From a virus (taxonomy: Duplodnaviria; Heunggongvirae; Uroviricota; Caudoviricetes): 64,000 nt of DNA. Below are positions 6,557-62,757 of this stretch, in pieces. The notes below the pieces were generated by a model. The model did no database searches. It was not told where the DNA came from and was given only the letters and a program-made list of their open reading frames with translations. The translations under genes were made by a program, and so were the position numbers. How positions within the stretch are numbered: the first letter of the stretch is position 1; every line of letters begins with the position of its first letter. The stretch lies in IMG/VR virus record IMGVR_UViG_2883489344_000002; one strand, given 5' to 3'.

Positions 6557-7302
6557 GCACTTTCCTTGAGTAATGCCAGCACACTGGCAGGGGTGATCGC
6601 GCTAACGGCCTTTGCCACCGCCGCGCTGTTAATCGAGGCACCAATCAACGCCACAGAGATGGCATTGCTATATGCCTGCTGGGATGTAGTGATGCTGCTG
6701 CTTGCCGCGTCGTACTGGGTGGCCAACGTCTTTTGTGCGGCGGTAGCAGTGGCCATCTTCGCGGTGAAGCCCGTTACGGCAGTTTGGAGCGCAGCTACCT
6801 GGCTGGTAGAGAGCGCCGCCGGCACGGTAGCAGTGCCGCTGGCCAGCGTGGCATTGATGCTATCCATGGCGGACGATAGCGCGCTGATATCCAGGGCGGT
6901 GAGGGCGGCCACCAGCGCGCCGGGCGTGGCGGCATCACCGATCGCCGTGGAGATGGCCAGCTCACTGGCTTTTAGCCCGCTGGCGCGGCAGTGCACGTCC
7001 CAGCCCGTGGTGAGCTGGATAAGGGTCGAGGGGTCACTGTAGTTAGCCAATAGTGTTGCGTGGCTGGTGGCCTGGGTGGCCGTGCCCGCCAGCACCTTCG
7101 CCCAGCTGCTGATCTGCGCTACGTTGGCGTTGATGCTACTTGGGTAGGTCACGGTAGACAGCACCAGCCCAGAGAGCGTGGCACTGGCCTTAGTGGCCAA
7201 TTTGGCCGCCTGAGTGGATTGGGTGGCGCTGGCGGCCGTGGCCAGCCCGCCGGCGGTTTTGAGCGCCTGGTAGGCGGCAATTTGGGCAGGGGTAGAAAGC
7301 AT
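6553..7302 (-). CDS. Ala/Ser/Thr-rich low-complexity protein (249 aa), function unknown
   Basis: ORF in an operon between the PAAR-like gene and the spanins. Its composition is strongly A/S/T-biased. Confidence 0.4.
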   Translation of the reverse strand: MLSTPAQIAAYQALKTAGGLATAASATQSTQAAKLATKASATLSGLVLSTVTYPSSINANVAQISSWAKVLAGTATQATSHATLLANYSDPSTLIQLTTGWDVHCRASGLKASELAISTAIGDAATPGALVAALTALDISALSSAMDSINATLASGTATVPAALSTSQVAALQTAVTGFTAKMATATAAQKTLATQYDAASSSITTSQQAYSNAISVALIGASINSAAVAKAVSAITPASVLALLKESA

Positions 7303-7305
7303 AGG

Positions 7306-7590
7306 TTAACTCACTGACAGGAGCGGCTCGCCGCTGGTTACGGTGGAACCACAGGAAACCGGATCGCCCTCGCAGACCACGGCCTTGCCGCCTACGGTAA
7401 ACCAAGGGCGGGTAGACATGGCATTACCGGGGTGTGATGACGTTCCGTCTGTATGGGAGGGATAGGCGTTACCATCCACCAGCACTGCAACGCCATTGAC
7501 CGTGAAGAAATCCACGGCCTCGGCCGGCGGCCGGGAGGCAAACCCATCATGCCCAGAACACACGGAATTTTTTGTCGCTATGCCAGGCAT
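7306..7590 (-). CDS. PAAR-like spike-tip protein (94 aa)
   Basis: Contains GDPVSCGSTVTSG and VVCEG motifs consistent with the PAAR/DUF4150 zinc-binding cone. Confidence 0.45.
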   Translation of the reverse strand: MPGIATKNSVCSGHDGFASRPPAEAVDFFTVNGVAVLVDGNAYPSHTDGTSSHPGNAMSTRPWFTVGGKAVVCEGDPVSCGSTVTSGEPLLSVS

Positions 7591-8393
7591 TCGGCCGGCT
7601 CCAGCTCATGGGGCACCATATGCAGGCACTCATAGATTTCTGGCGTATCAGCGTAGCGCTCGCGCTGCTCGGCAAGGCAGGAGGTGGAGATGAGGGAGTT
7701 TCCTTTTTGGGATAACTGGATAGCTTTCACCTGGGGCTGCTGGCCAAGCCAGACCAGGGCGCTTGAGACCTTATAGCCCGCCACCACCAGCCGGCACTCT
7801 GGGGAGACAAGGTTATAGACCAGGCGGATAAAGTCCGGGTGATATTGGTGAGCGTCATCGATAATCACCGTGTTTACGCCTGGCAGCACCGATTCAAGGT
7901 ACTCGCGCGTGGCGTCCACCATCGGATCCCAGCACAGCCCCCACGTCAGCTTTTCATCCGTCGCCAGCACGTACTCTGTCCGCACAGAAAATAGGGCGTC
8001 CGCCAGGGCTAAGCCCGCGCCGGCATACCCATAGCGCAACATCTTGCGACACTTCAGCATGATGTCTTGGGTAGGGGAGATGACCATTACCACCTGATCA
8101 CGATTCATCACCAGGTCATGCAGTGCCACCATGGCACATGCTGTGGTCGCGCCTGTTTCTGGGGCGTGGAAGGCCAGAACATGGCGCTGGCTCTCCATGG
8201 CTGCCAATAAGCGCTGTTGCTGCCGGGTCATGCTCAATTCGGGGAGCACGTGGTTCGCAAAGTAGCGCAATGAGCGCTCTTCTGGCGTGAACTCGTCCAG
8301 CATGGCATAGCCCATATTGCGGACGCGGTTGCTTACCAGCTCGTTATGGTCAGGAAAAGTAATGCTCTCGAGAGTGGTTTTGAAGGAACCCAT
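7578..8393 (-). CDS. P-loop/DEAH-like NTPase-fold protein (271 aa)
   Basis: Degenerate Walker A (HAPETGATT) and a DEAH-like Walker B (VIIDDAHQY). First gene of the minus-strand operon. The promoter region at 8394-8560 is AT-rich. Confidence 0.4.
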   Translation of the reverse strand: MGSFKTTLESITFPDHNELVSNRVRNMGYAMLDEFTPEERSLRYFANHVLPELSMTRQQQRLLAAMESQRHVLAFHAPETGATTACAMVALHDLVMNRDQVVMVISPTQDIMLKCRKMLRYGYAGAGLALADALFSVRTEYVLATDEKLTWGLCWDPMVDATREYLESVLPGVNTVIIDDAHQYHPDFIRLVYNLVSPECRLVVAGYKVSSALVWLGQQPQVKAIQLSQKGNSLISTSCLAEQRERYADTPEIYECLHMVPHELEPAECLA

Positions 8394-26262: not shown

Positions 26263-26910
26263 TTAGATTAGGGGTATATCGATGCGCGCCATCTGATATG
26301 CCAGCGCCAGCAGCTCGTACTGAGTCCCATTCAAAGCCTCAAAGGTTCGCTTTCCGCCTACAGTGCCTGCGGCATGTACGGGCACAAGCCACGGGTAACA
26401 ATCACGAACCCTTGCCGGCGCGGCCAGCTGGTGGTGCCACTCGCACAATGGCAGCACCAGCTTGTGCGCGCCCGGCTTTACCCGGCCGTCAATGTGGTGC
26501 AATGAGACCTGCTCTGTGCGAATGCCATGCTGTAGGCAGGCAATGCATGGGAGAGTGCCCAGGGCGGCCATGATGCCGCGCTCCTCGGAGGTAGGGCTAC
26601 GCCCCTTGGTTCCCAGACTGCGCGCCGGCTTTCGCGTCCTGGCCGCCGCTGGTGGCTTGCTAACTGCCTGCTGGCGCTTAGCCTGGGCTTTCTCCACCAG
26701 CTGGGCACGGTACTCAGGAGATTGTTGGCGCGCGCGCTGCTTTTCCTGCTGCCGCTTACCGCTGGCTAAGGCTTTTTCCTGCATGGCCTGGCGGTAAGCC
26801 GGATCTGCCTGGCGGGTGCGCTGCTTCTCCCGCTGGCGCTGTTGGGCATCCCGCTGTTTTTGCAGCTGGCGCGCCTTCTTCTCTTCCGTCAGTCCATTAA
26901 TGGCCGGCAC
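26263..26910 (-). CDS. ref: Ref-like HNH endonuclease (recombination enhancement function family)
   Basis: Basic, Q/R-rich disordered N-terminal half followed by C..C...HHIDGR......LPLCEWHH core, as in P1 Ref. Confidence 0.55.
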   Translation of the reverse strand: MPAINGLTEEKKARQLQKQRDAQQRQREKQRTRQADPAYRQAMQEKALASGKRQQEKQRARQQSPEYRAQLVEKAQAKRQQAVSKPPAAARTRKPARSLGTKGRSPTSEERGIMAALGTLPCIACLQHGIRTEQVSLHHIDGRVKPGAHKLVLPLCEWHHQLAAPARVRDCYPWLVPVHAAGTVGGKRTFEALNGTQYELLALAYQMARIDIPLI

Positions 26911-30534: not shown

Positions 30535-30900
30535 TTAGTCTTGCGTCCAGAACACCACATCTTTGGGCGGGGACAGCGGCGTTTCTTCGAACCGTAAATA
30601 AGTGCCGATACTTATGCCTTCTTTTGTCAACTGGCAAAGCGGCGGTGCCTTGGGATTGTCCGGCTCCGAATGGATGATCTGGACAGCACCGCGCTTAACT
30701 AAGCGACATAGAGAATTCCTGAAATTGCTCAATGTGAGCGATTTTTTGTGCATTTTTTTCAGGTATCTCGGCCTAACTTGCAAGTAAAGGGCGGATAGAT
30801 GAATTTGGCAGTGCTTACCTTTACGGAGGCTTCCGTTACAGTGTTGCTCTGCCAAATAAGACAGCGTGACCTTTTGCAAGATCGAAAACTCTCTTGGCAT
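30535..30900 (-). CDS. hypothetical protein
   Basis: ORF immediately downstream of the recombinase gene. The start is uncertain. Confidence 0.3.
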   Translation of the reverse strand: MPREFSILQKVTLSYLAEQHCNGSLRKGKHCQIHLSALYLQVRPRYLKKMHKKSLTLSNFRNSLCRLVKRGAVQIIHSEPDNPKAPPLCQLTKEGISIGTYLRFEETPLSPPKDVVFWTQD

Positions 30901-30956
30901 GGGGATGACCTTATTGTTCTTCTTTCTTTTTCTTTTGGGCGTCTTGTGGCGTTATC

Positions 30957-32036
30957 TCAGCGAAACATACGCAACATGATGCTGTTATCTGCCTCCAAAT
31001 GTCTGATGTAGCCCATAACCTGCTTAGGCGTCTTCCAGGTGCCCTCATGCATAATCTGGGGAAGGGATGCACCACTTTTGGCCATGTCCTGCGCCGCCCC
31101 TACGCGGGGGCTGTGCCCAGTCCACGTGCGATAGCGCTTGGTAGACTTTCCGTCCTGGGTGCCATAGAGCGCTGACCAAGCATCAGAGAAAATCTTCTCA
31201 ATTGCACGGTGAGTAAGGGGATTTTTGGTTTGACGGAGTTTGTTGTAGCGGTCAACACCGCAAAAAACAAAGGCGTCAGGCTGATCGGCCAGGCCAGACA
31301 TTTCGAGCCAGTTGACCAGCCACTCAGTGACGATTGGAGCCAATTTCTTAATGACGCCGTACCCATCGATGATGGTTTTGGTGTGCTTGACTAGCAGAAT
31401 AGCGGTGCCGTCAGGGGAGAACGTCACATCACGAACACGTAAGCGGGAGATCTCCGCAATGCGCAGCAGAGTAATGTAGGAGATACCGATGAAAGCCAGA
31501 TTCCGGCGTTGGTAAAGGCGGGTATTGGACTCCCACGCGGCAGCTACCTTGAGCAATTCCTCTCGGTGCAGCGGAATAGCCTGGCCGATCATCTCACCTT
31601 TTAGGACAGACGTTCTGCGGATTTTACGCATCCCACGATCAACGGAGCGCACGTCATCAGGGCGCAGCAAGCCGGCCTCGGCGTGAATTTTGTTAATCAT
31701 GGTCTTGTGCTGTGCCACTGTGGAGGTGGCACGGCCAAGCTCCTCTTTCAAATAGAAGAGGTAATCACGCACATCATCATAGTCAGCGGGGAGCCACACT
31801 TTGCCGCGCTCGTCACACCAGCGCGCCCAGCTCCGCAATACCGAGAGCATCTGATCCCAGGTATTTTTGGCAAACGCATCCTTGTCGGCTAAGAACCGGC
31901 GAAGATGATCGGCTACCCGCTCATCGAAACTTGCCGCGTTTAATGAAGGAAGGTCACGTGGATTCACCTTCTTCGGAGTCATTTTCGTCATCGATTTTCC
32001 TATGTCGTTTGCAGATTTTGTAATCTGGATGCTCAT
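30957..32036 (-). CDS. cre: Cre-like tyrosine site-specific recombinase
   Basis: Collinear similarity to P1 Cre, including AFxxxTW, VRDYLxYL, NLAFxGIxYxTLLRIAEIxRxRVxDx, GHSxRVGAAxDMAxxGxSxPxIMxxGxW and MxYIR with the catalytic Tyr. The start codon is uncertain (32036, 31991 or 31982). Confidence 0.75.
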   Translation of the reverse strand: MSIQITKSANDIGKSMTKMTPKKVNPRDLPSLNAASFDERVADHLRRFLADKDAFAKNTWDQMLSVLRSWARWCDERGKVWLPADYDDVRDYLFYLKEELGRATSTVAQHKTMINKIHAEAGLLRPDDVRSVDRGMRKIRRTSVLKGEMIGQAIPLHREELLKVAAAWESNTRLYQRRNLAFIGISYITLLRIAEISRLRVRDVTFSPDGTAILLVKHTKTIIDGYGVIKKLAPIVTEWLVNWLEMSGLADQPDAFVFCGVDRYNKLRQTKNPLTHRAIEKIFSDAWSALYGTQDGKSTKRYRTWTGHSPRVGAAQDMAKSGASLPQIMHEGTWKTPKQVMGYIRHLEADNSIMLRMFR

Positions 32037-32283
32037 CTTTCAGGAGCAACCCGATTTCTTCAGCCGTAAACGGCCGCTTAGCGTTTCTATCGTGCAATTG
32101 AAGGTCCGGGTGCATATCCGCAAGGAGAAGAAGGAACTCAAACTCACTAGAGGCCATAGGCCGATGGTCATGTTCCTTCTTTATCCAGCCGCCAACGGAG
32201 TAGCCAAATCGTTCGGCCATCTCTGCTTGCGTCTTGCCTAGCTTTATGCGGGCTGCCTTAACCATTTTACCGGTCGGTTGCAT
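31954..32283 (-). CDS. XRE-family HTH regulator upstream of cre (109 aa)
   Basis: Canonical HTH LGKTQAEMAERFGYSVGGWIK. It overlaps the annotated cre 5' end. Confidence 0.5.
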   Translation of the reverse strand: MQPTGKMVKAARIKLGKTQAEMAERFGYSVGGWIKKEHDHRPMASSEFEFLLLLADMHPDLQLHDRNAKRPFTAEEIGLLLKDEHPDYKICKRHRKIDDENDSEEGEST

Positions 32284-32659
32284 AAAAATGCTCCTGCAAC
32301 TATCCCGCCCGGGATAGTGATTTTATAGTGGTCTGGGTTAAATACAACGCTAATCCCAAAATTAACTGGTAAACCGGTTTATGAGCGTGGGACTAACGTT
32401 TGGTGCTTCTACGCTAAAAATGCACAGGGATTACCCACAATCTGATTAATTTTTCACGTAACGCTACCAAGTCTGATCTTCAAGTTATGGCTCATGCTGA
32501 TAGCTAAAAACGCCTGCATATACGACGAGATTGGGATGAGATGTCGCTCTGAGTATCGGTTTCATAGTGTGCCAACCCCTAAAGTTAAAAGCCTGCTAAT
32601 TTCGTAAGGAAAACGTCACAGGACTGAAACGGCTTTGCTAAACCGTAAAGTACCAAATG

Positions 32660-32699
32660 TTGTCAGGTATATATATGGGTAGTTATATATACCTGACAA
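32660..32699. promoter_or_regulatory. lox-like recombination site: 16-bp perfect inverted repeats flanking an 8-bp asymmetric spacer
   Basis: TTGTCAGGTATATATA-TGGGTAGT-TATATATACCTGACAA. Same architecture as loxP (13-8-13). It lies in a roughly 650-bp non-coding region upstream of cre. Confidence 0.6.
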
Positions 32700-32942
32700 T
32701 TTTGTAAGGGGGTAAGCATATTCGATTTATTGTTATCTCACCAGAGACCTATTCCGTTAAGTTATTATTACCATGATCAATATCACCAATGGTATCAGTT
32801 CCATAATTGTCGAAAAAGCCCGCAATTCAGCACTATTTTCAGTTTCTGATACCGGTAACCTTCCCCGTCACAATGGGCTAGTGGTATATAGGGATTGTCC
32901 GAAAACGATAGTGGATTGGAAATTTTTTGCAGGGTTAGAGCA

Positions 32943-33155
32943 ATGACACGTAACACCATTTTACCTTTAGTGAATGACATTACATTAGCCGCCAAAGAGC
33001 TTGGGCTTGTAACCTTGGCAACACCTGCCAATATGGAAATCATCGTGCAACACTTCGCTATGACGCTCTCAACCCCCGCTCCTGGCACAAAACGTGTCTC
33101 CATCAAAGAACTCCGCCGATACTTAAAGCAAACCATTTACTACTGTATTTTGTGA
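32943..33155 (+). CDS. Coi-like small protein (70 aa) upstream of c1
   Basis: The size and position match P1 coi. Its start overlaps an ATTGCTCTAA C1-operator-like half-site on the minus strand. Confidence 0.35.
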   Translation: MTRNTILPLVNDITLAAKELGLVTLATPANMEIIVQHFAMTLSTPAPGTKRVSIKELRRYLKQTIYYCIL

Positions 33156-33318
33156 CCCAGTTGTTCATAGAGTGCTCGTGTCCCACATATAGGACAAGTT
33201 TGTCCAGTTATGAGACATTTTTGTCCGGGTATTGTGTAACGGCTAGTAGACCTATACTAAAATAATGTTTATTTTAAGCTGTCGGCGCTATGCCGGCCTT
33301 GAAAGAGACATTTTGTTG

Positions 33319-34197
33319 ATGAAAAAAATCCAGCGTGTAGAGAAACTATACAAAGAATTCTTGAGCTTCCGGGAGAGGTTCTTAAAAGAGGCCATGGAGT
33401 TGGCCACCGTCACCCAAACCGCCATTCTTACCGGTGAGGCTTATCGTCCCATCGTCATCGTCCCACCTGAGAAATTCTTGCAGTTTGAAAGTGATATAGA
33501 ACTTTGGGCTAAATACGCCTTCAATTTGGAGCAGCTGGCGACTGACGTTAAGCAATTTGGTGCGGCTAAACGCTTGTTTTACCCCTTCCCCAAGCTGATC
33601 ACCAATGCCAGCAACGTGACCTACTATACTAACGAGGCTTCAGCCCAGCAGACGCGCACCGTCAAAGCTGCATTGCGCCAGCTCACTGTAGCCGTCCGTT
33701 CTGCCCGCACCCACCAGCCCCCTGAGCAGCTCGAGCAAGTGCTCGATGGTTTGAATAAAGACCGAGAAATTCTCTCATCCCTTCCCCCTGAAACCGTGCT
33801 TATCTGCCGGCGCACAGGCTATAACGACCTGTATTGCAGCTATGAAACGCCGGATGCATCTGGGCGCGTTGTTACCCGAGTTTCAAGCAATGGCGCATTC
33901 TTTGATGGCCGTGAAGTGACAGAGATCAAACTTGCTGAAAAGGCGCAGACCAATAAAACCTCTTTCTATGACCAGCTGACCCCGCTCCCCATTAAGATGT
34001 ATGGTGGCTGCAAGGTCTATCTGGAACATGAGGCTAAGGCCTTAAAAGAGCATTTGAAAGGAACAAAGCAAGAGCGTCGCATTCAATCCAGAGTAAAGCG
34101 CGCCGCTAAGCAGGCCGCCGAACGAGCCGCTGCCAGGCGCGCCCGAGAAGAAGCCGAGGCTGCCGCCCCCACGCCACCCGTCAACGATATTGAGTAG
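33319..34197 (+). CDS. c1: C1-type immunity repressor
   Basis: The N-terminus IQRVEKLYKEFLSFRERFLKEA aligns with P1 C1 (VYGEQLYQEFVSFRDLFLKKA). 292 aa versus 283 aa in P1. Confidence 0.65.
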   Translation: MKKIQRVEKLYKEFLSFRERFLKEAMELATVTQTAILTGEAYRPIVIVPPEKFLQFESDIELWAKYAFNLEQLATDVKQFGAAKRLFYPFPKLITNASNVTYYTNEASAQQTRTVKAALRQLTVAVRSARTHQPPEQLEQVLDGLNKDREILSSLPPETVLICRRTGYNDLYCSYETPDASGRVVTRVSSNGAFFDGREVTEIKLAEKAQTNKTSFYDQLTPLPIKMYGGCKVYLEHEAKALKEHLKGTKQERRIQSRVKRAAKQAAERAAARRAREEAEAAAPTPPVNDIE

Positions 34198-34216
34198 CCA
34201 CCCACAGCTGGTGGCT

Positions 34217-35716
34217 TTAGCCATTAAGCCAATCCTCCGCTTCGCTTCTGCGACCCTCATCAGCCCGACTCAATACCTCACTGGCCGGCACATAGTCCGC
34301 TAACTGGGTAAAGCAGTAGACATCCCATCGGTCGGGCGACTTCAGGTTAAGCTTCAACCTCATTTGCTCCTTCTTCATGATCACCCATTGCCCTGCCTCA
34401 TTGAGGAAGGCCGGGATCTTGCTGGCCTGGTCAGCTGTCTTGGCATCAGGGTCAAGTCTCATGCGCCCCTGGCGCACTGCGTTAGCCGCCAGTACGTTGG
34501 CATAGGCGCGCTGGTTGACATAGTGCCGCTTTAGCGCCTCATTGTGCATACGCTTACCCCAACGAATGCGCTGGGCAAACACCCCGTGCTTTTCCTCCAG
34601 CACGTCGGCCGTAGTAGCACCGATCCCGTCGCCATCGATGGCAATGGAGATATTGGGATACTTGTCATGGGTGCACTCGCTGAAGATGACATCAGCGAAA
34701 CGTGACGGTGTAACGGTAGATTCCATCTCATAGACAATATGCGGCACCACCCGGCGATGTTTGCCATATCCAGACACCCGGAAAATACCCAACACGGACT
34801 TGTCTCGACCGTTCCCCACGTCACAGCAGGCCAGCCAGCCCCAGCCCTTGGCCAGCGGCACACGCCGGCGCATGGCGCGCTCACACACATCACGCCCCAG
34901 TAGATAGCCAGAAAGCGAGGTCGGAAACTCCCCGCGTACCTTGATCAGGTATTCAGGGCTTTCGCGGCCGCCATAATCCATCAGCTTCTCAGCAATGAAC
35001 CGGAGGGTAACCAGGGGGCTTTCCTCAGAGTTGAGCTTAATGGCGGTGTAGATACCCTTGGGGTTCTCTGGGGTCTTGGCCAGGCGGTGATGAGAATCGT
35101 AAAACTCGCCGCTGGTTCGCGTGGGCTGGGAGATCAGCAGTAGGCGGTTATCCTCCTGGGTCAGTGCGCCTTTGATGAAGCCAAATGCCTTGTCAGAGAC
35201 ACCTGACGCCTCATCGATAATGTAGAGCATGTGATCAGCGTGCTCACCGGCCAGCGCCTCCTCATTGCCCAGACGGAAGCCCTTGGGCACCACTTCCCAG
35301 CTGCCCTTTGAGCCGTTCGCAAAGAACTGCATATCAGTTAGCGTGAAGTATTGCGCCAGCCACGGGAAGTTTTTGAGTGCAACTTTCCAGTTTTGCTTAA
35401 GGTACTTAAAAATACCCGTCTTGACCTGCTGTAGCTTGTTTGCTATCAGGATAACGCGGGCTTCAGGGAAGAAAATCATGTAGCAGAGGATCATGATAGA
35501 GGTCATGTCGGACTTACCCGTACCGTGTCCTGACGACACTGAGGTACGGCTACCGTGCTCCTGCACGGCCTCTATAATCATCTCCTGCTGCCAAGTTGGG
35601 GTTTTCCCAAATATCACTTCGGCGGCGGTGATCCAGTCATACCGATACATCACGACCAACCGTTGCCAGCGCGGGTCATCCAAGACCGGCGATCGCAACT
35701 TAGTGCTGGTGGCCAT
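34217..35716 (-). CDS. terminase large subunit (PacB-like)
   Basis: Walker A SGHGTGKS. Walker [11 protein letters not shown]-terminal nuclease-like IAIDGDGIG. Confidence 0.75.
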
Positions 35717-36941
35717 CTATTTCATCATCTCCAAAAAGCAGTTGGTTAATGTCGTCGTCTGGTTCTTCATCGTCAGCAAAGCCAACCGACAGGTTTAAAT
35801 CGTTAAGGCTCCCATCCGCTGCCACGTCACCGTGGCCACCCTCATCGACCAGCTGGTTAACGGCCTCCCGCTTACCGGCCAAGTCTTCATCCAGGGCGGC
35901 CAGGCGCGCAGCGCGCATCTCCCGGGCTTGCTTGTCCAGCTCCATCAAATCGATGGGCACAGCTTGAATGTCATTGGTGGCGGACTGCTTGATCTCATGG
36001 CGCGCCAGCTCCAGCAGCAGGGAGGGCACCTTGTCGCCGTGTGACTCAATCATGATTGCGGTATCGAGGGCGCTGCGGCCGTGTGCCTGACGCTCCTGGT
36101 AGGCTTGCTGGATGCGCTCCGGCTCCTGGAGCTTGCGTAGGTGTTTTTCCTGCTCTCGCTGCTCCCGGGCGTAGCTCTGGCGTATGCCGGCCATGGTGCG
36201 GGCAGCGTCATTGATTGCGCCGGCGGCAGCGGTTACCACGGAAAGGGCTTTAACTAAAGGGGGCTGGCCACCTTCATCGCCTTCTGGTGCCGGCTGTGAA
36301 TCTAGGAACTCCAGCAGCTCTATGCTGATGCGCTCTATCTTGAAGAGATTGACGAGGCTTTTTTCAATCACGATAGCCTCAAGGGCATCAACGCCGGCAG
36401 CGGCCAGCAGCTCCTGTGCTCGGGCTACATCCTCCTCCGCTGGCGCGGTGCCCATCAGTAACTGACCGCCCTTCTTAGTCTGGTCTGACACACGCCCGGA
36501 CTTTGTGCGGCCGGCAACGGCCGTGATCACTTCGCCAACAAGCACAGCAGCAGGTGTCGGCACATCACTGAGGGCGCTGCCCCCGGTGCCGTTTTTAATC
36601 TGTGCGCTTAGCTCCCTGATTTTGCTGGTTTTCTCTGAAGCGGTGATCACACTGCGTTGATCACTGGCGTGATCATCTTTATTGGCGTGATCATTTGATC
36701 GTGGGGAAGACTTTGATCGCTGGGATGATCGCGGAACTGATCGCGCGGGGCTGGCCTGTGGCTTTTCTTTGGCAACGACGCTATCACCGGCACCCAGGTA
36801 ACGGCGGGCAGTGTTGGGGTTTAGTCCATACAATTCAGCATATTGCTTAATGCTGATGTCCTGCTTTGCCCGCATCTGGGCGAAGCGCTCTCTATGCTCT
36901 CCCCAATCTGTCTTCACTGCGATCACCTTCAAAGTTGCCAA
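35700..36941 (-). CDS. terminase small subunit (PacA-like) containing the pac site
   Basis: N-terminal [24 protein letters not shown]. Directly upstream of and overlapping terL. Confidence 0.6.
36644..36743. repeat. pac-site-like cluster of eight TGATCA/TGATCG hexamers (Dam sites) within the terS 5' region
   Basis: Four TGATCA (36644, 36658, 36670, 36688) and four TGATCG (36696, 36714, 36726, 36738) in 100 bp. Confidence 0.65.
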
Positions 36942-49704: not shown

Positions 49705-49783
49705 ATAGTGCTCTCATGGAAGCCCGGGAGGGCTGGGGGAATCGTACCGGCATGGCCTCTATCAAAGACCATGCCGGTACGGC

Positions 49784-52074: not shown

Positions 52075-52847
52075 TTACATCGTGGCGAGTAACAGTGATT
52101 CAGGTACTTCTAACATCCTTGCAAGCGTCTCATTGTCCTTAGAATCATGCATCGTCAAGTGTCCCAGGTGGGATAGCTCCGTCACGCGAATAGTGCCACC
52201 ATTCCACAACACCCGCAATTGCTCTAAGCCCTCAAAATACTCCTGGGGACTCATGCCCCATGTGCTGTACTCCCGCAAAGTTTGGGGGCGGCAGGCGAAA
52301 ACCTGCACCTGGCGAAGCCTGTAGCGGCCGGCGACCGGGGCATGTTTGGCTGATGCCCTGCCATGCAAGGAATGCTGCTACGGGAGAAATAGAGTGCACG
52401 ACCATATTTATCAGTCACCGTCTTCACAATGCCAGGATCTGCGGCCTGGGCATCAGACACGTGCTGCACCGCAACGGTTGCCATGTCTGCCGCGCGCTTG
52501 TCGAAGTCACCCACCAGCTGCTTGATGTGGCAGCCCGGAAATAGCGGCTCATTGGCCGGCAAGCTCACGGTGATGACGCTGGCCATGATCACCTTAGCGT
52601 CTACCAGCTGCGTCACGGCGGCGGCGACACGCTCAAGGTCATTCACGCAACCATTCACCATTACTGCCATGGCACCGTGCTGTGGCACGTGGCGCGCAAT
52701 GTCCAGGCACTCAGTGGCCACTATCACCATTGATGCACCTGACTCATGCGCCCGCTGAATGGTATGGGACAGAATCGATCTTCCGCCTACCTCAGCCAGG
52801 GGGTCAAACAGGCCTGCGGCAGAACATGGTTCCGCGGGGACGACCAC
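52075..52847 (-). pseudogene. kdsB-like CMP-Kdo synthetase gene, frameshifted and with a degenerate N-terminal motif
   Basis: The 52251-52847 ORF aligns to KdsB residues about 1-180. The 52075-52368 ORF aligns to the KdsB C-terminus (EQLRVLWNGG) in another frame. The N-terminus lacks the conserved Arg/Lys. Confidence 0.5.
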
Positions 52848-54859: not shown

Positions 54860-55320
54860 GCGGTAAAGCGCGTAGTTGAGGTTGCCCAGCAGGTTACTAA
54901 AGCCATGGTTAATGGCCTCGATAAGCGGGGGTGTTCTGCTGGTGGAGTGGCTGGCAAGGGCTGTACGGACATCGGAACCTCTAGAATGTGTGGCTGGCCG
55001 TGTGTAGGGACATGCGACCCAGTGGGTTAACCGAGAGCACTGGCGCGGCAGGGAAACCCTCTTGGTTAAGCAATGTGCCCAGGCGCAAGGGGGTCATCAG
55101 GTTATCGGGGTAATGCACCACCACTGATCTGACGCCGCTGTCGGTCATGAAACTTACCGACCAAAAGTAATGGCGGCGTTGGAAAAATCTCAGAATCTTG
55201 GACATTTGCACCATCTTACGAATAGTTAAACATCCTAAACATTTAGCGGCCGTAATATGAAGTATTTAGGATGGGATGTAAAGTTGTGCCCGTTACCCGA
55301 ATCAGTGACCTTTTTCTGTA

Positions 55321-56052
55321 TTAACAGGTCACTGATTCGAACACCGGATCGGTAGCATCGTGGGTCAGGTATGCGGGCAACCAGGGTTCGCCGCTTTCAT
55401 GCGGACGCGGGTTGCCGTGGAACACCACCACGCGCGCGCCGGCCGGCAAGGTGCCATCACCGCGTGAATAGCGCTCGGTTGCCCAGCGGTTCTCTCCGAC
55501 CTTCACGATGTCTGCCTTGTAGCTGACGAACCAGCCCGGATAGAGGTCTTGCCAGTGCAGGCAATCCCCGATCACGCCCCGGATAAAGCCCTGGTCGCCC
55601 CACTTCGCCGTTACGGTGCACTCAGCAATATGGCGCTGCGGCTCCTTCCAGAAGGCATTCCAGATCTGCGCCTTAGCGCTGTTCGGGATGAACATCACCG
55701 AACTCATAAGGTATTGCGGGTGGTAAAAGTCAGTGAGCATCACCATCTGGTCACCGGTGGTCTTCAGCAGCTTCTTGATGTCACCGGTGATCACCGTGTC
55801 CAGGTCAAAATAAAGCAGGTCATCCGTAATGTCCGGGCGGAACAAGTCGATCTTCGCCCACCAGCCACGCATCCCCTGGTAGGGGGTGGTCAGTGGGATG
55901 CAGGTCACGCGATCCATGACAAATGGCGCATCCGTCAGACAGATGACCTCCGCGCCCTTAGGCAGCTGTGCCACCAGCGTTTTGACGTCATTCGGGGTGT
56001 AGTCGCCGCCGGCGCGGTACACCAGGGCAATTTTCAGGGGTTTTTTAGCCAT
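55321..56052 (-). CDS. GT-A-like (DxD) putative glycosyltransferase (243 aa)
   Basis: LLYFDLDTVITGD DxD motif after a hydrophobic strand. Confidence 0.4.
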   Translation of the reverse strand: MAKKPLKIALVYRAGGDYTPNDVKTLVAQLPKGAEVICLTDAPFVMDRVTCIPLTTPYQGMRGWWAKIDLFRPDITDDLLYFDLDTVITGDIKKLLKTTGDQMVMLTDFYHPQYLMSSVMFIPNSAKAQIWNAFWKEPQRHIAECTVTAKWGDQGFIRGVIGDCLHWQDLYPGWFVSYKADIVKVGENRWATERYSRGDGTLPAGARVVVFHGNPRPHESGEPWLPAYLTHDATDPVFESVTC

Positions 56053-60729: not shown

Positions 60730-62757
60730 ATGAGTGATAATTTTGTTAGTAAAATTGTTAAGGGAAGAATCAAACCACCAATACGTGCTGATTTTAGTCT
60801 TGAAAAATGGAATGAGGAGTGGGCTAAGGTTGAGGCAAACTCTTCAGCAAGAGATAAAAAAGTCTATACAATGGGTATAATTATTGATGGTGTGCTCAGT
60901 GATATTAGAGAAAAACTAGCGGATTTATATCGACAAGCACCGAAAACAAACCATGAAAAACTGATGATCTCGTATATTGCAAGCTCCAATAGGACATCAG
61001 CTGTTGCTCTTAAACTTGCAAAAAGAACACCAACGACAAATGTTAATGACATAATGCTAAAAGCAAATGGTCGAGTAAACAAACAAAGCTTAGGAGAGAT
61101 CGTTCATGGAGCTGTTGATGGTTTTCAGCTTGCCATAAGAGAATGCATAAAAGGCATAGAGAATAATAGTCAAATAACAAGTTCTGATGATCCAATAGAT
61201 GAAATGATTTTCATCCAACAAGAAAGCTGGTTATCTCAGTTATATCATACTTACCTCCATCTTTGGCAATGCATTTTATGGAGTGATTATAATTTAGTAG
61301 AGATTGATGTTGAAAATAAAATATTCAGAATCGAACAGCCAAACACACCATTTGAAATTGCATTTAATAATAGTAGCCAGCGAAAAGAAAGTCTTTCAGC
61401 CCAAATGACATTTATCGCTACCCTACCTAATATAGCCCAATTCTTTGATGATGATAAATATATTTTTATTACTCGGGGTAATAAAAAAAGAGTGGCAAAA
61501 GTTGCATCTATTAGTAATGCGACTAGAGAATTAAAAACAATCAACGCGCACTGGAGAATGGGGGAGCATGATCTTGAAGACCACTTTCCTAAAGAGTGGT
61601 TAAACAATGATTTTGGTAAAGGGTTTTGTTTGTCAGAAGTATTGAATGTAATGAGAGTATTGATGCTCATCGCTAACATTGAGACTGAAAAATATCCAGA
61701 AGATGATAGTGCATATAATGTTAATAAATTAAGGGAGTTTTGTCCAACCGTTCAAGCAAGCTCATTAGAATGTGCCTTGTGTGAAGCTACAGAAATTAAC
61801 GCCCTTAAAATTAGTAAAATTCTTGATTTTCTAACATTTAATTCTTCTCCAACTGGAGATATTTGGTGTCAACCGTTGGTAAAATTAAAGAAAAATAAGT
61901 ATGCATTATTGACTAGCGCATTAAACGCACCGGTGATACTTAGGCTTTTCGAGCGTTGGGCATATCTTTTTGATATTGATCTCAGTAAAAAAGGAACGAC
62001 TTACGAAATAAAAGTTGTAGACGAAATAAACAGCGCTCTTAGAAGCAATGTATTTATAACTGACTATGACGATGCAGTATCTAAAAGAATTAAAGTAATA
62101 TCTGGTGAGGAAGAGATTGACTTTTTGGCAAGGGTCGATGATTTGATATTGATTGGTGAAGCAAAGTCTATAGTTACCACTGATTCAGAAATATCTAAGT
62201 ATCGGACGTCTGAAATACTTCAACATGCGGGAGAACAGGTTGTAAGGAAAACAGAGTTTTTAAGAACGAATTTACAAACTGTTTTTGAAGTATTGAATTG
62301 GAGTTATGATGCGAATAAAGATTATAAGTTTGCAGGGTTTATCATTAACAGCAGTCGCATATTTGTCGGGCATTCATTTAATTCAATACCAGTAATTGAT
62401 GAGAAAATACTTCAGGCATACTTCTCCTCAAATGAAATAAACCTGTTAACTGTGATTTCACAAAATAAGTCGAAATCTATTGCTTGGTACAGACTTTATA
62501 ACAATATCAATGAATTGAAGGATAACTTCAGTAAATATATCGCAGCCCCACCACAATTGAATGCCAACACTAAAGATTATGAGTATAATGAAATAGTTTT
62601 CCCCCATATAAATAATGACTCTTATAAAATCTCAAAAAAATATCTTGTATTTAAATCACGTGGCCTGTTAGCTCCTATGGAACAAGAACATAGTTTCCCG
62701 GTGATCAAATCAGCAGATTACGATTTAGAGATCGAGACTATTAACGTGACACTTTGA
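60730..62757 (+). CDS. large AT-rich protein of unknown function (675 aa) with a possible PD-(D/E)xK motif; candidate defence/exclusion gene
   Basis: About 30% GC, against roughly 55-60% for the backbone. It is preceded by a 450-bp AT-rich promoter region. EIDFLARVDDLILIGEAKS has the form D-x(n)-ExK. No NTPase motif. Confidence 0.6.
   Translation: MSDNFVSKIVKGRIKPPIRADFSLEKWNEEWAKVEANSSARDKKVYTMGIIIDGVLSDIREKLADLYRQAPKTNHEKLMISYIASSNRTSAVALKLAKRTPTTNVNDIMLKANGRVNKQSLGEIVHGAVDGFQLAIRECIKGIENNSQITSSDDPIDEMIFIQQESWLSQLYHTYLHLWQCILWSDYNLVEIDVENKIFRIEQPNTPFEIAFNNSSQRKESLSAQMTFIATLPNIAQFFDDDKYIFITRGNKKRVAKVASISNATRELKTINAHWRMGEHDLEDHFPKEWLNNDFGKGFCLSEVLNVMRVLMLIANIETEKYPEDDSAYNVNKLREFCPTVQASSLECALCEATEINALKISKILDFLTFNSSPTGDIWCQPLVKLKKNKYALLTSALNAPVILRLFERWAYLFDIDLSKKGTTYEIKVVDEINSALRSNVFITDYDDAVSKRIKVISGEEEIDFLARVDDLILIGEAKSIVTTDSEISKYRTSEILQHAGEQVVRKTEFLRTNLQTVFEVLNWSYDANKDYKFAGFIINSSRIFVGHSFNSIPVIDEKILQAYFSSNEINLLTVISQNKSKSIAWYRLYNNINELKDNFSKYIAAPPQLNANTKDYEYNEIVFPHINNDSYKISKKYLVFKSRGLLAPMEQEHSFPVIKSADYDLEIETINVTL

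Follow-up and report, generated by a model that had tools for sequence, protein, structure and literature searches.

A Cre-type recombinase and its probable lox-type site in a P1/D6-like plasmid prophage of Nissabacter

The 64,000-nucleotide stretch of IMG/VR virus record IMGVR_UViG_2883489344_000002 (Caudoviricetes; hereafter the window) contains, at positions 32660–32699, a perfect inverted repeat with 16-bp arms and an 8-bp spacer, located 0.65 kb from a gene encoding a tyrosine recombinase related to Cre of phage P1. The repeat is read here as a lox-type site, and the recombinase as the Cre protein of a P1/D6-like plasmid prophage, probably with a specificity of its own. A probability of about 80% is given to this reading, because the recombinase is homologous to Cre, the gene order is that of P1 and D6, and homologous sites occupy the same position in close relatives; the same evidence bears out the suggestion of a first-pass annotation of this DNA that the arrangement is that of loxP and cre in P1.

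The left arm of the repeat (32660–32675, TTGTCAGGTATATATA) and the right arm (32684–32699, TATATATACCTGACAA) show 100% complementarity. The 8-bp segment between them (32676–32683), which is presumably the crossover region, is asymmetric and non-palindromic; it reads TGGGTAGT as given and ACTACCCA along the cre-like gene, on the minus strand. The full site as written is TTGTCAGGTATATATA TGGGTAGT TATATATACCTGACAA, to which no strand is assigned, and it contains a canonical 34-bp core of the 13-8-13 type at 32663–32696. The 40-mer is single-copy in the window, even when up to three mismatches are allowed, and it occurred in none of 100 dinucleotide-preserving shuffles. The description of a perfect 16-bp repeat with an asymmetric spacer, made in the first-pass annotation, was accurate. 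Scanning all 64 kb for inverted repeats with 13-bp arms (at most one mismatch, spacer of 4–10 bp) returned four places, among which 32660–32699 alone is perfect. The other three repeats (26427–26461, 49745–49779 and 55301–55336) have one mismatch each and spacers of 7–10 bp; they may be terminators, and the one at 26427 carries a Chi octamer in both arms. No second good copy of the 13-bp half-site was found in the window, the single half-site with two mismatches, at 62051, being at chance level, and scans of IMG/VR and JGI metagenome contigs with the exact arms as the pattern gave no match. A LexA-box reading of the site was dismissed by eye, as the site is without CTGT-N8-ACAG.

The site lies 624–669 bp upstream of the cre-like gene, the range being set by the start of that gene (32036 or 31991), which agrees with the distance of about 620 bp noted previously. 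About 600 bp around the site are AT-rich, with a guanine-plus-cytosine (GC) content of 37–41% versus 53% for the window. The architecture is that expected of a lox-type site: 13-bp inverted repeats, an asymmetric 8-bp spacer, an intergenic location and a recombinase gene nearby.

The putative recombinase, a Cre-type tyrosine recombinase of 344 amino acids (aa), is encoded on the minus strand at 30957–31991; the open reading frame (ORF) extends up to 32036, and its start is probably the annotated one, at 31991. A phmmer search against the Cre and Tre structures gave an E-value of 1e-80, with residues 27–358 of the query aligned to residues 9–339 of Cre, a nearly full-length homology that includes the Cre-type N-terminal domain. 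The recombinase is 41% identical to P1 Cre and 43% identical to Dre, and it has kept all six catalytic residues, R177, K205, H293, R296, W319 and Y328, the counterparts of Cre R173, K201, H289, R292, W315 and Y324. In the comparison with Cre, a check of DNA-contacting residues that the first-pass annotation had proposed, the catalytic hexad and E262 are retained, and several residues at specificity positions are changed (K43D, K86S, R241G, G263K and E266S).

In the window, the genes follow the order pacA-pacB-c1-coi-[site]-small gene-cre, as they do around lox in P1, and the order pacA-pacB-c1-site-recombinase recurs around rox in D6; at this position, both lox and rox are experimentally known sites. 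A megablast search with positions 30900–34300 against phage and plasmid collections gave no match, and protein-level searches were therefore used. Related loci were gathered by tblastn against plasmids, by pattern scans of genome and viral contigs, by a protein search and by looking up the contigs encoding the proteins found. The closest recombinases are 51–59% identical to that of the window and are encoded, with the same synteny, on contigs of 85–97 kb, which is the size of P1; they include those of Pantoea sp. CCBC3-3-1 (NZ_CP034366), Citrobacter freundii (NZ_CP145667) and several metagenome and SRA contigs. All 12 close-relative loci that span the interval between c1 and cre carry a 13-8-13 repeat there (loci named L001, L002, L013, L014, L022, L027–L031 and L033), and further sites were found upstream of cre homologues in several more distant loci of Xenorhabdus and Frischella.

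Written in the orientation of cre, as arm, spacer and arm, the site of the window is TCAGGTATATATA ACTACCCA TATATATACCTGA and P1 loxP is ATAACTTCGTATA GCATACAT TATACGAAGTTAT. The site of the Pantoea locus L001 is CCAAGGCAATATA ACATCCAA TATATGGCCTTGG and that of L022, which has the same spacer, is CCAAGATTACATA ACATCCAA TATGTAATCTTGG. A second spacer is found in L027 (CCAACTCTATATA ACATCCAT TATATCGAGTTGG), in L028 and L031, which share one site (CAAAGATAACATA ACATCCAT TATGTTATCTTTG), and in L033 (CCAACTCCATATA ACATCCAT TATATGGAGTTGG); the site of L002 is CAAAAGTAATATA ACACCCAT TATATTACCTTTG. The three spacers of the relatives, ACATCCAT, ACATCCAA and ACACCCAT, correspond to ACAYCCAW and are oriented to cre in the same way as the loxP spacer GCATACAT, to which the spacer of the clade is identical at six of eight positions. 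A few kb downstream of the cre homologue, L031 also contains a gene (7071–7799) with Tad2-like and Sequestin Pfam domains, of the anti-defence, anti-Thoeris type.

Across 14 sites, the signature ATA-N8-TAT is invariant, as in loxP, and none of the scattered non-syntenic repeats in the relatives' loci has it. Two-sided changes of the arms occur at 9 of the 13 positions, and the arm covariation score is 0.66, compared with 0.05–0.12 when the partner is slid by one to three columns; the symmetry is, however, partly built in, since the sites were picked as inverted repeats. Independent evidence comes only from the shared place in the gene order, the constant spacing of 8 bp, the ATA/TAT signature and the conserved, cre-oriented spacer.

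The same comparison bears on the possibility that the repeat is a hairpin transcription terminator or another structural element of RNA or DNA. The predicted RNA fold has a stem of 17 bp (−27.7 kcal/mol, z = −4.7) and UUUUG after it, as a terminator might, but the repeat lies between divergently transcribed genes, where there is nothing to terminate, and it was not called by the terminator scan. Neither terminators nor promoters were predicted above the shuffle expectation, and an Rfam scan of the whole window gave no matches. The loop ends of the stems are AT-rich, and the relatives keep the loop, that is, the spacer, while their stems vary, which is the opposite of what is expected of a terminator; such a role is scarcely credible.

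A regulatory role deserves slightly more attention. The repeat could be the operator of a dimeric transcription factor controlling the divergent cre and immC units, for example of the Xre-type helix-turn-helix (HTH) protein whose gene is adjacent. This gene is an ORF of 109 aa with a weak Xre-type HTH match (31954–32283, minus strand), situated in the stretch from the site to cre, where P1 has cra, and its presence corrects the first-pass annotation, which had taken this stretch to be without convincing ORFs. Sequence similarity to P1 Cra was not found for the 109-aa product. The HTH ORF runs in the same direction as the cre-like ORF, with an overlap of 38 nt between them, or of 83 nt with a cre start at 32036; the closest relatives differ in having the HTH gene divergent from cre, which is preceded by a separate ORF of 66–107 aa. 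The perfect palindromic layout of the repeat, its AT-rich surroundings between divergent genes and a weak promoter-like match with the −35 element inside the right arm would all suit an operator, but 40 bp with a non-symmetric 8-bp centre would be unusual for one. Furthermore, the site is conserved in the relatives and the HTH gene is not (no tblastn match), while the ATA-N8-TAT signature and the orientation of the spacer are common to the relatives' sites and loxP. Another, GC-rich palindrome, ACTATCCCG CC CGGGATAGT (32299–32318), lies directly at the start of the HTH gene, 16 bp upstream of its start codon (32283, minus strand); this palindrome, which was flagged by the terminator scan, could be the operator of the HTH protein. 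Altogether, it is highly improbable that the 40-bp repeat is an HTH operator.

The genomic setting is that of a plasmid prophage. A tyrosine recombinase with 100% identity to that of the window is encoded by Nissabacter sp. SGAir0207 on a contig of 101,864 bp, and the genome announcement for this strain lists a plasmid pSGAir0207_4 of 101,764 bp with 52.7% GC (accession CP028039; PMC6687921). The genes of the window encode a tail sheath protein, tail proteins, a PmgS-like head protein, a Dmt-like methyltransferase, a PacA/PacB-type terminase and a ParM-type partition protein. Myovirus structural genes, a headful terminase and a partition gene are thus found together on a separate plasmid of a complete genome, as in a phage-plasmid; because of the tail, head, terminase and ParM-type genes and the plasmid replicon, the window is assigned to a P1/D6-like plasmid prophage of about 102 kb in Nissabacter sp. 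SGAir0207, of which it is a part.

It might be supposed instead that the gene encodes an ordinary integrase, with the repeat serving as the core of its attP site for integration into the chromosome, as the Pfam and PHROG matches of the protein are to generic 'phage integrase' families, and many Cre homologues of Pantoea and Erwinia are encoded on megaplasmids or chromosomes. The element of the window is, however, a plasmid of about 102 kb in a finished genome (PMC6687921) with a ParM-type partition gene, and the relatives are on contigs of the size of P1. The homology to Cre is full-length and covers the Cre-type N-terminal domain, and no arm-type repeats were seen around the site. An attP function is, on these grounds, extremely unlikely.

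As to specificity, the arm of the window site shares 6 of 13 bases with loxP and 6–9 of 13 with the relatives' sites, and the spacer shares two of eight bases with loxP. Since neither the arms nor the spacer nor several of the DNA-contacting residues are those of Cre/loxP or of the relatives found, the recombinase and the site are probably a distinct pair with its own specificity. The claim of the first-pass annotation that this is a Cre/lox pair different from loxP therefore holds for the sequence of the site, with 7 of 13 arm bases different, while the separate specificity is predicted from sequence. Cre R259 makes contact with the G that pairs with arm position 8, and K43 with position 9 (PMC7438526). 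In the relatives, a sample that is small and not phylogenetically independent, the residue at 259 varies with the base at arm position 8: arginine goes with C (Cre, L030 and L033), lysine or valine with A (L001, L002, L028, L029 and L031) and asparagine with T (L027).

Besides the partly built-in symmetry of the relatives' sites, several observations weigh against a functional Cre/lox pair. The window is the exception to the pattern just described, with arginine at residue 259 (Cre numbering; Arg262 in the protein itself) and T at arm position 8. Its spacer ACTACCCA has only four of eight bases in common with the consensus of the clade, and its arm has A at position 7, where T is reported for active sites (PMC10250229). 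In the same survey, about every second predicted pair showed no activity on its predicted site (PMC10250229).

Perhaps, then, the site and the gene are relics, homologues of lox and cre which no longer function as a pair; the mismatch between Arg259 and T8 and the share of inactive pairs among those tested (PMC10250229) would fit such decay. Nevertheless, the ORF is intact with all catalytic residues present, and the 16/16 symmetry of the arms is better than that of any relative, where the arms have 0–2 mismatches in 13. Such symmetry argues for continuing selection, and decay of the pair appears very unlikely.

If the repeat and the recombinase are a lox-type site and its Cre, their mode of action can be proposed by analogy with P1. 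The steps of Cre/loxP recombination and the circularisation of P1 DNA were described in the work of Sternberg and of Hoess and in the P1 genome paper. One recombinase monomer would bind each arm, and two sites would synapse as a tetramer; Tyr328 would cleave at the edges of the 8-bp spacer, and the strands would be exchanged via a Holliday junction. Recombination would circularise terminally redundant DNA, packaged by the headful mechanism from a pac site about 4 kb away, and would also resolve plasmid dimers before partition, a role in multimer resolution that is documented for Cre (PMC7969092). The biology would be the expected one for a P1-like plasmid prophage, that is, a module for cyclisation and dimer resolution.

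On the other side of the site lie the genes which, as in P1, compose the immunity (immC) module, coi-like and c1-like; such neighbours are ordinary for a P1-like element. The c1-like gene (33319–34197, plus strand) encodes a C1-type phage repressor homologue of 292 aa, with matches to phrog_1678 and the NCBIfam family phage_rep_C1. The protein has 25% identity to P1 C1 (E-value 8e-21), and its NCBIfam match has an E-value of 2.7e-20 and 73 bits, against an equivalog cut-off of 500; a Pfam scan of the protein gave no match. Judged from these comparisons, the gene is a true but distant homologue of c1, as had been proposed.

The ORF of 70 aa at 32943–33155 (plus strand) lies in the coi position, 164 bp upstream of c1, and is a candidate for a remote member of the Coi family. 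Its size is close to that of Coi, a protein of about 69 aa. The BLAST search revealed no similarity between its product and P1 Coi, and family libraries gave no match. In the relatives, an ORF of about 67 aa is found immediately upstream of c1, to which the 70-aa ORF aligns at 19–32% identity, and tblastn matched it to the ORF upstream of c1 in the Pantoea locus L001 (45% over 40 aa). A profile of the 67-aa family compared with P1 Coi gave an hhalign probability of 73% (E-value 3e-5) over 34 N-terminal columns, Coi residues 4–37, where the motif PPTIDDV...L.VD...HYS of Coi corresponds to PPTIEEV...LHVD...HFS of the family. Since the profile match, the size and the position agree, remote homology of the 70-aa ORF to Coi is plausible; the Coi-like label of the first-pass annotation is retained for these reasons, with the family-profile match being weak and BLAST similarity to P1 Coi being absent.

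A match to the P1 C1 operator had also been noted at the start of this ORF. The decamer ATTGCTCTAA is indeed present on the minus strand at 32935–32944, overlapping the ATG (32943) of the 70-aa ORF, within an operator-like match, ATTGCTCTAACCCTGCA, at 32928–32944 (minus strand). The P1 C1 operator is an asymmetric 17-bp site near ATTGCTCTAATAAATTT, dispersed in many copies at C1-controlled promoters, and such a set is not found in the window; the match there agrees with the P1 consensus at 10 of 17 positions and is confined to the left ten bases. No site with three or fewer mismatches to the 17-mer was found anywhere in the window, and de novo searches for operators seeded from 32284–33330 (15-mers with up to two mismatches, 17-mers with up to four) returned only A-rich start contexts. 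The exact decamer occurs twice in the 64 kb, compared with 0.19 expected, and 2 of 100 shuffles reached two copies, numbers that are suggestive only, as the motif was picked after being seen; with one mismatch, it occurs three times versus 4.6 expected. The second exact copy lies at 52218–52237, among ORFs that match no PHROG family, and its context, ATTGCTCTAAGCCCTCAAAA, shares 17 of 20 bases with that of the first copy, ATTGCTCTAACCCTGCAAAA. The exact decamer occurs five times in 8.8 kb of P1 and was not found in the immC regions of the relatives. Positional homology to Oc1c of P1 was considered and rejected: Oc1c, too, lies close to the coi start, but on the coding strand, where it encodes HCSNAL, whereas the decamer of the window is on the other strand. 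The half-site overlapping the Coi-like start thus exists as described, while its role as an operator, with 10 of 17 bases matched, no conservation and a repressor only 25% identical to C1, is unproven, because a ten-base match has no regulon behind it.

A bolder proposal would combine a fully orthogonal Cre-type system, needing a half-site of 16 bp in which a (TA)4 tract adjoins the spacer, with a distant C1 homologue (25%) that still reads the ATTGCTCTAA half of the P1 operator. This combination is unlikely; were the C1 homologue to read ATTGCTCTAA, the left half-operator would be an ancient recognition element conserved across the P1 supergroup.

Further from the site, the terminase genes follow the pattern of P1. 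A PacB-type large subunit of the terminase, 62% identical to P1 PacB, is encoded at 34217–35716 and a PacA-type subunit, 30% identical to P1 PacA, at 35700–36941, both on the minus strand. The 5' part of the pacA-like gene, 200–300 nt into the gene and about 4 kb from the lox-type site, contains eight TGATC[AG] hexamers within 100 bp (36644–36743; no strand assigned), four TGATCA followed by four TGATCG. The cluster is similar to the arrays of Dam-methylatable hexamers at pac of P1 and is a candidate pac site of the P1 type; in the P1 record, pac is annotated at the equivalent place within pacA, with 4.0 kb between it and lox.

The window is also rich in the Chi octamer GCTGGTGG, with 73 copies, 48 on the minus and 25 on the plus strand (e.g., 34207–34214 and 35705–35712), compared with 3.0 ± 1.5 expected from shuffles. 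This is an enrichment of about 24-fold, with one octamer per 0.88 kb. The density in related P1/D6-like loci and in fragments of P1 and D6 is 0.7–2.1 per kb, with few octamers in the Xenorhabdus relatives. P1 itself is reportedly Chi-rich, and the density in the window is higher.

The predicted pair extends the P1-like group with a cyclisation and dimer-resolution module to Nissabacter (Yersiniaceae), and it introduces no new principle. Orthogonal Cre-type recombinases with new targets serve multiplexed genome engineering, for which the pair of the window, whose site is unlike loxP, rox and the sites of the closest relatives, is a candidate tool. The collected sites and recombinases, with co-varying arms and with residue 259 set against position 8, make a small natural data set on the co-evolution of Cre-type enzymes and their sites. 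The only paper returned for the site sequence was an unrelated one on Xenopus. Neither the sequence of the site nor the genus Nissabacter was found in this connection in searchable literature text, a scope that does not include Supplementary Table S2 of PMC10250229, with its approximately 500 candidates.

Compared with Cre/loxP of P1, the window has a full-length homologous recombinase (41% identity) with the same catalytic hexad, a 13-8-13 core with TATA beside an asymmetric 8-bp spacer, a site flanked by immC (c1, coi) on one side and, beyond a small gene, by cre on the other, and PacA/PacB with a pac hexamer cluster about 4 kb off, in an element with the same plasmid-prophage lifestyle. It differs from P1 in that its site agrees with loxP at only 6 of 13 arm and two of eight spacer bases and is symmetric over arms of 16 bp, and in that specificity residues are changed; the small upstream gene encodes an HTH protein and not Cra, C1 is 25% identical, and a set of P1-type operators is absent. 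With Dre/rox of D6, the window shares 43% recombinase identity and the order pacA-pacB-c1-site-recombinase, but rox is of the 14-4-14 type (TAACTTTAAATAAT TGGC ATTATTTAAAGTTA), not 13-8-13, and the C1 proteins are 19% identical. Nearest are the uncharacterised pairs of the Pantoea/Citrobacter type, which have recombinases 51–59% identical to that of the window, the same synteny and 13-8-13 sites with ATA-N8-TAT; they differ in their spacers (ACATCCAT, ACATCCAA or ACACCCAT), in their arms, of which 6–9 of 13 bases are shared, and in the HTH gene, which is divergent from cre and not co-directional with it as in the window. Panto/pox, Nigri/nox and the YR series (PMC4957104, PMC10250229) are likewise of the Cre type, with lox-like sites predicted by the same criteria (within 1 kb of the gene or proximal to it). 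Experiments confirmed about half of the pairs tested from these pipelines, which speaks for the present reading. Karimova et al. (2016) validated Panto/pox and Nigri/nox (PMC4957104), and Jelicic et al. (2023) listed some 500 pairs as predictions and confirmed 8 of 17, using as criteria a palindrome of 13–15 bp, a gap of 8 bp and a distance from the gene of at most 1 kb (PMC10250229). The site of the window would be caught by these criteria, and the predicted pair is a new but ordinary member of the well-known and actively mined class of Cre-type recombinases with predicted lox-like sites.

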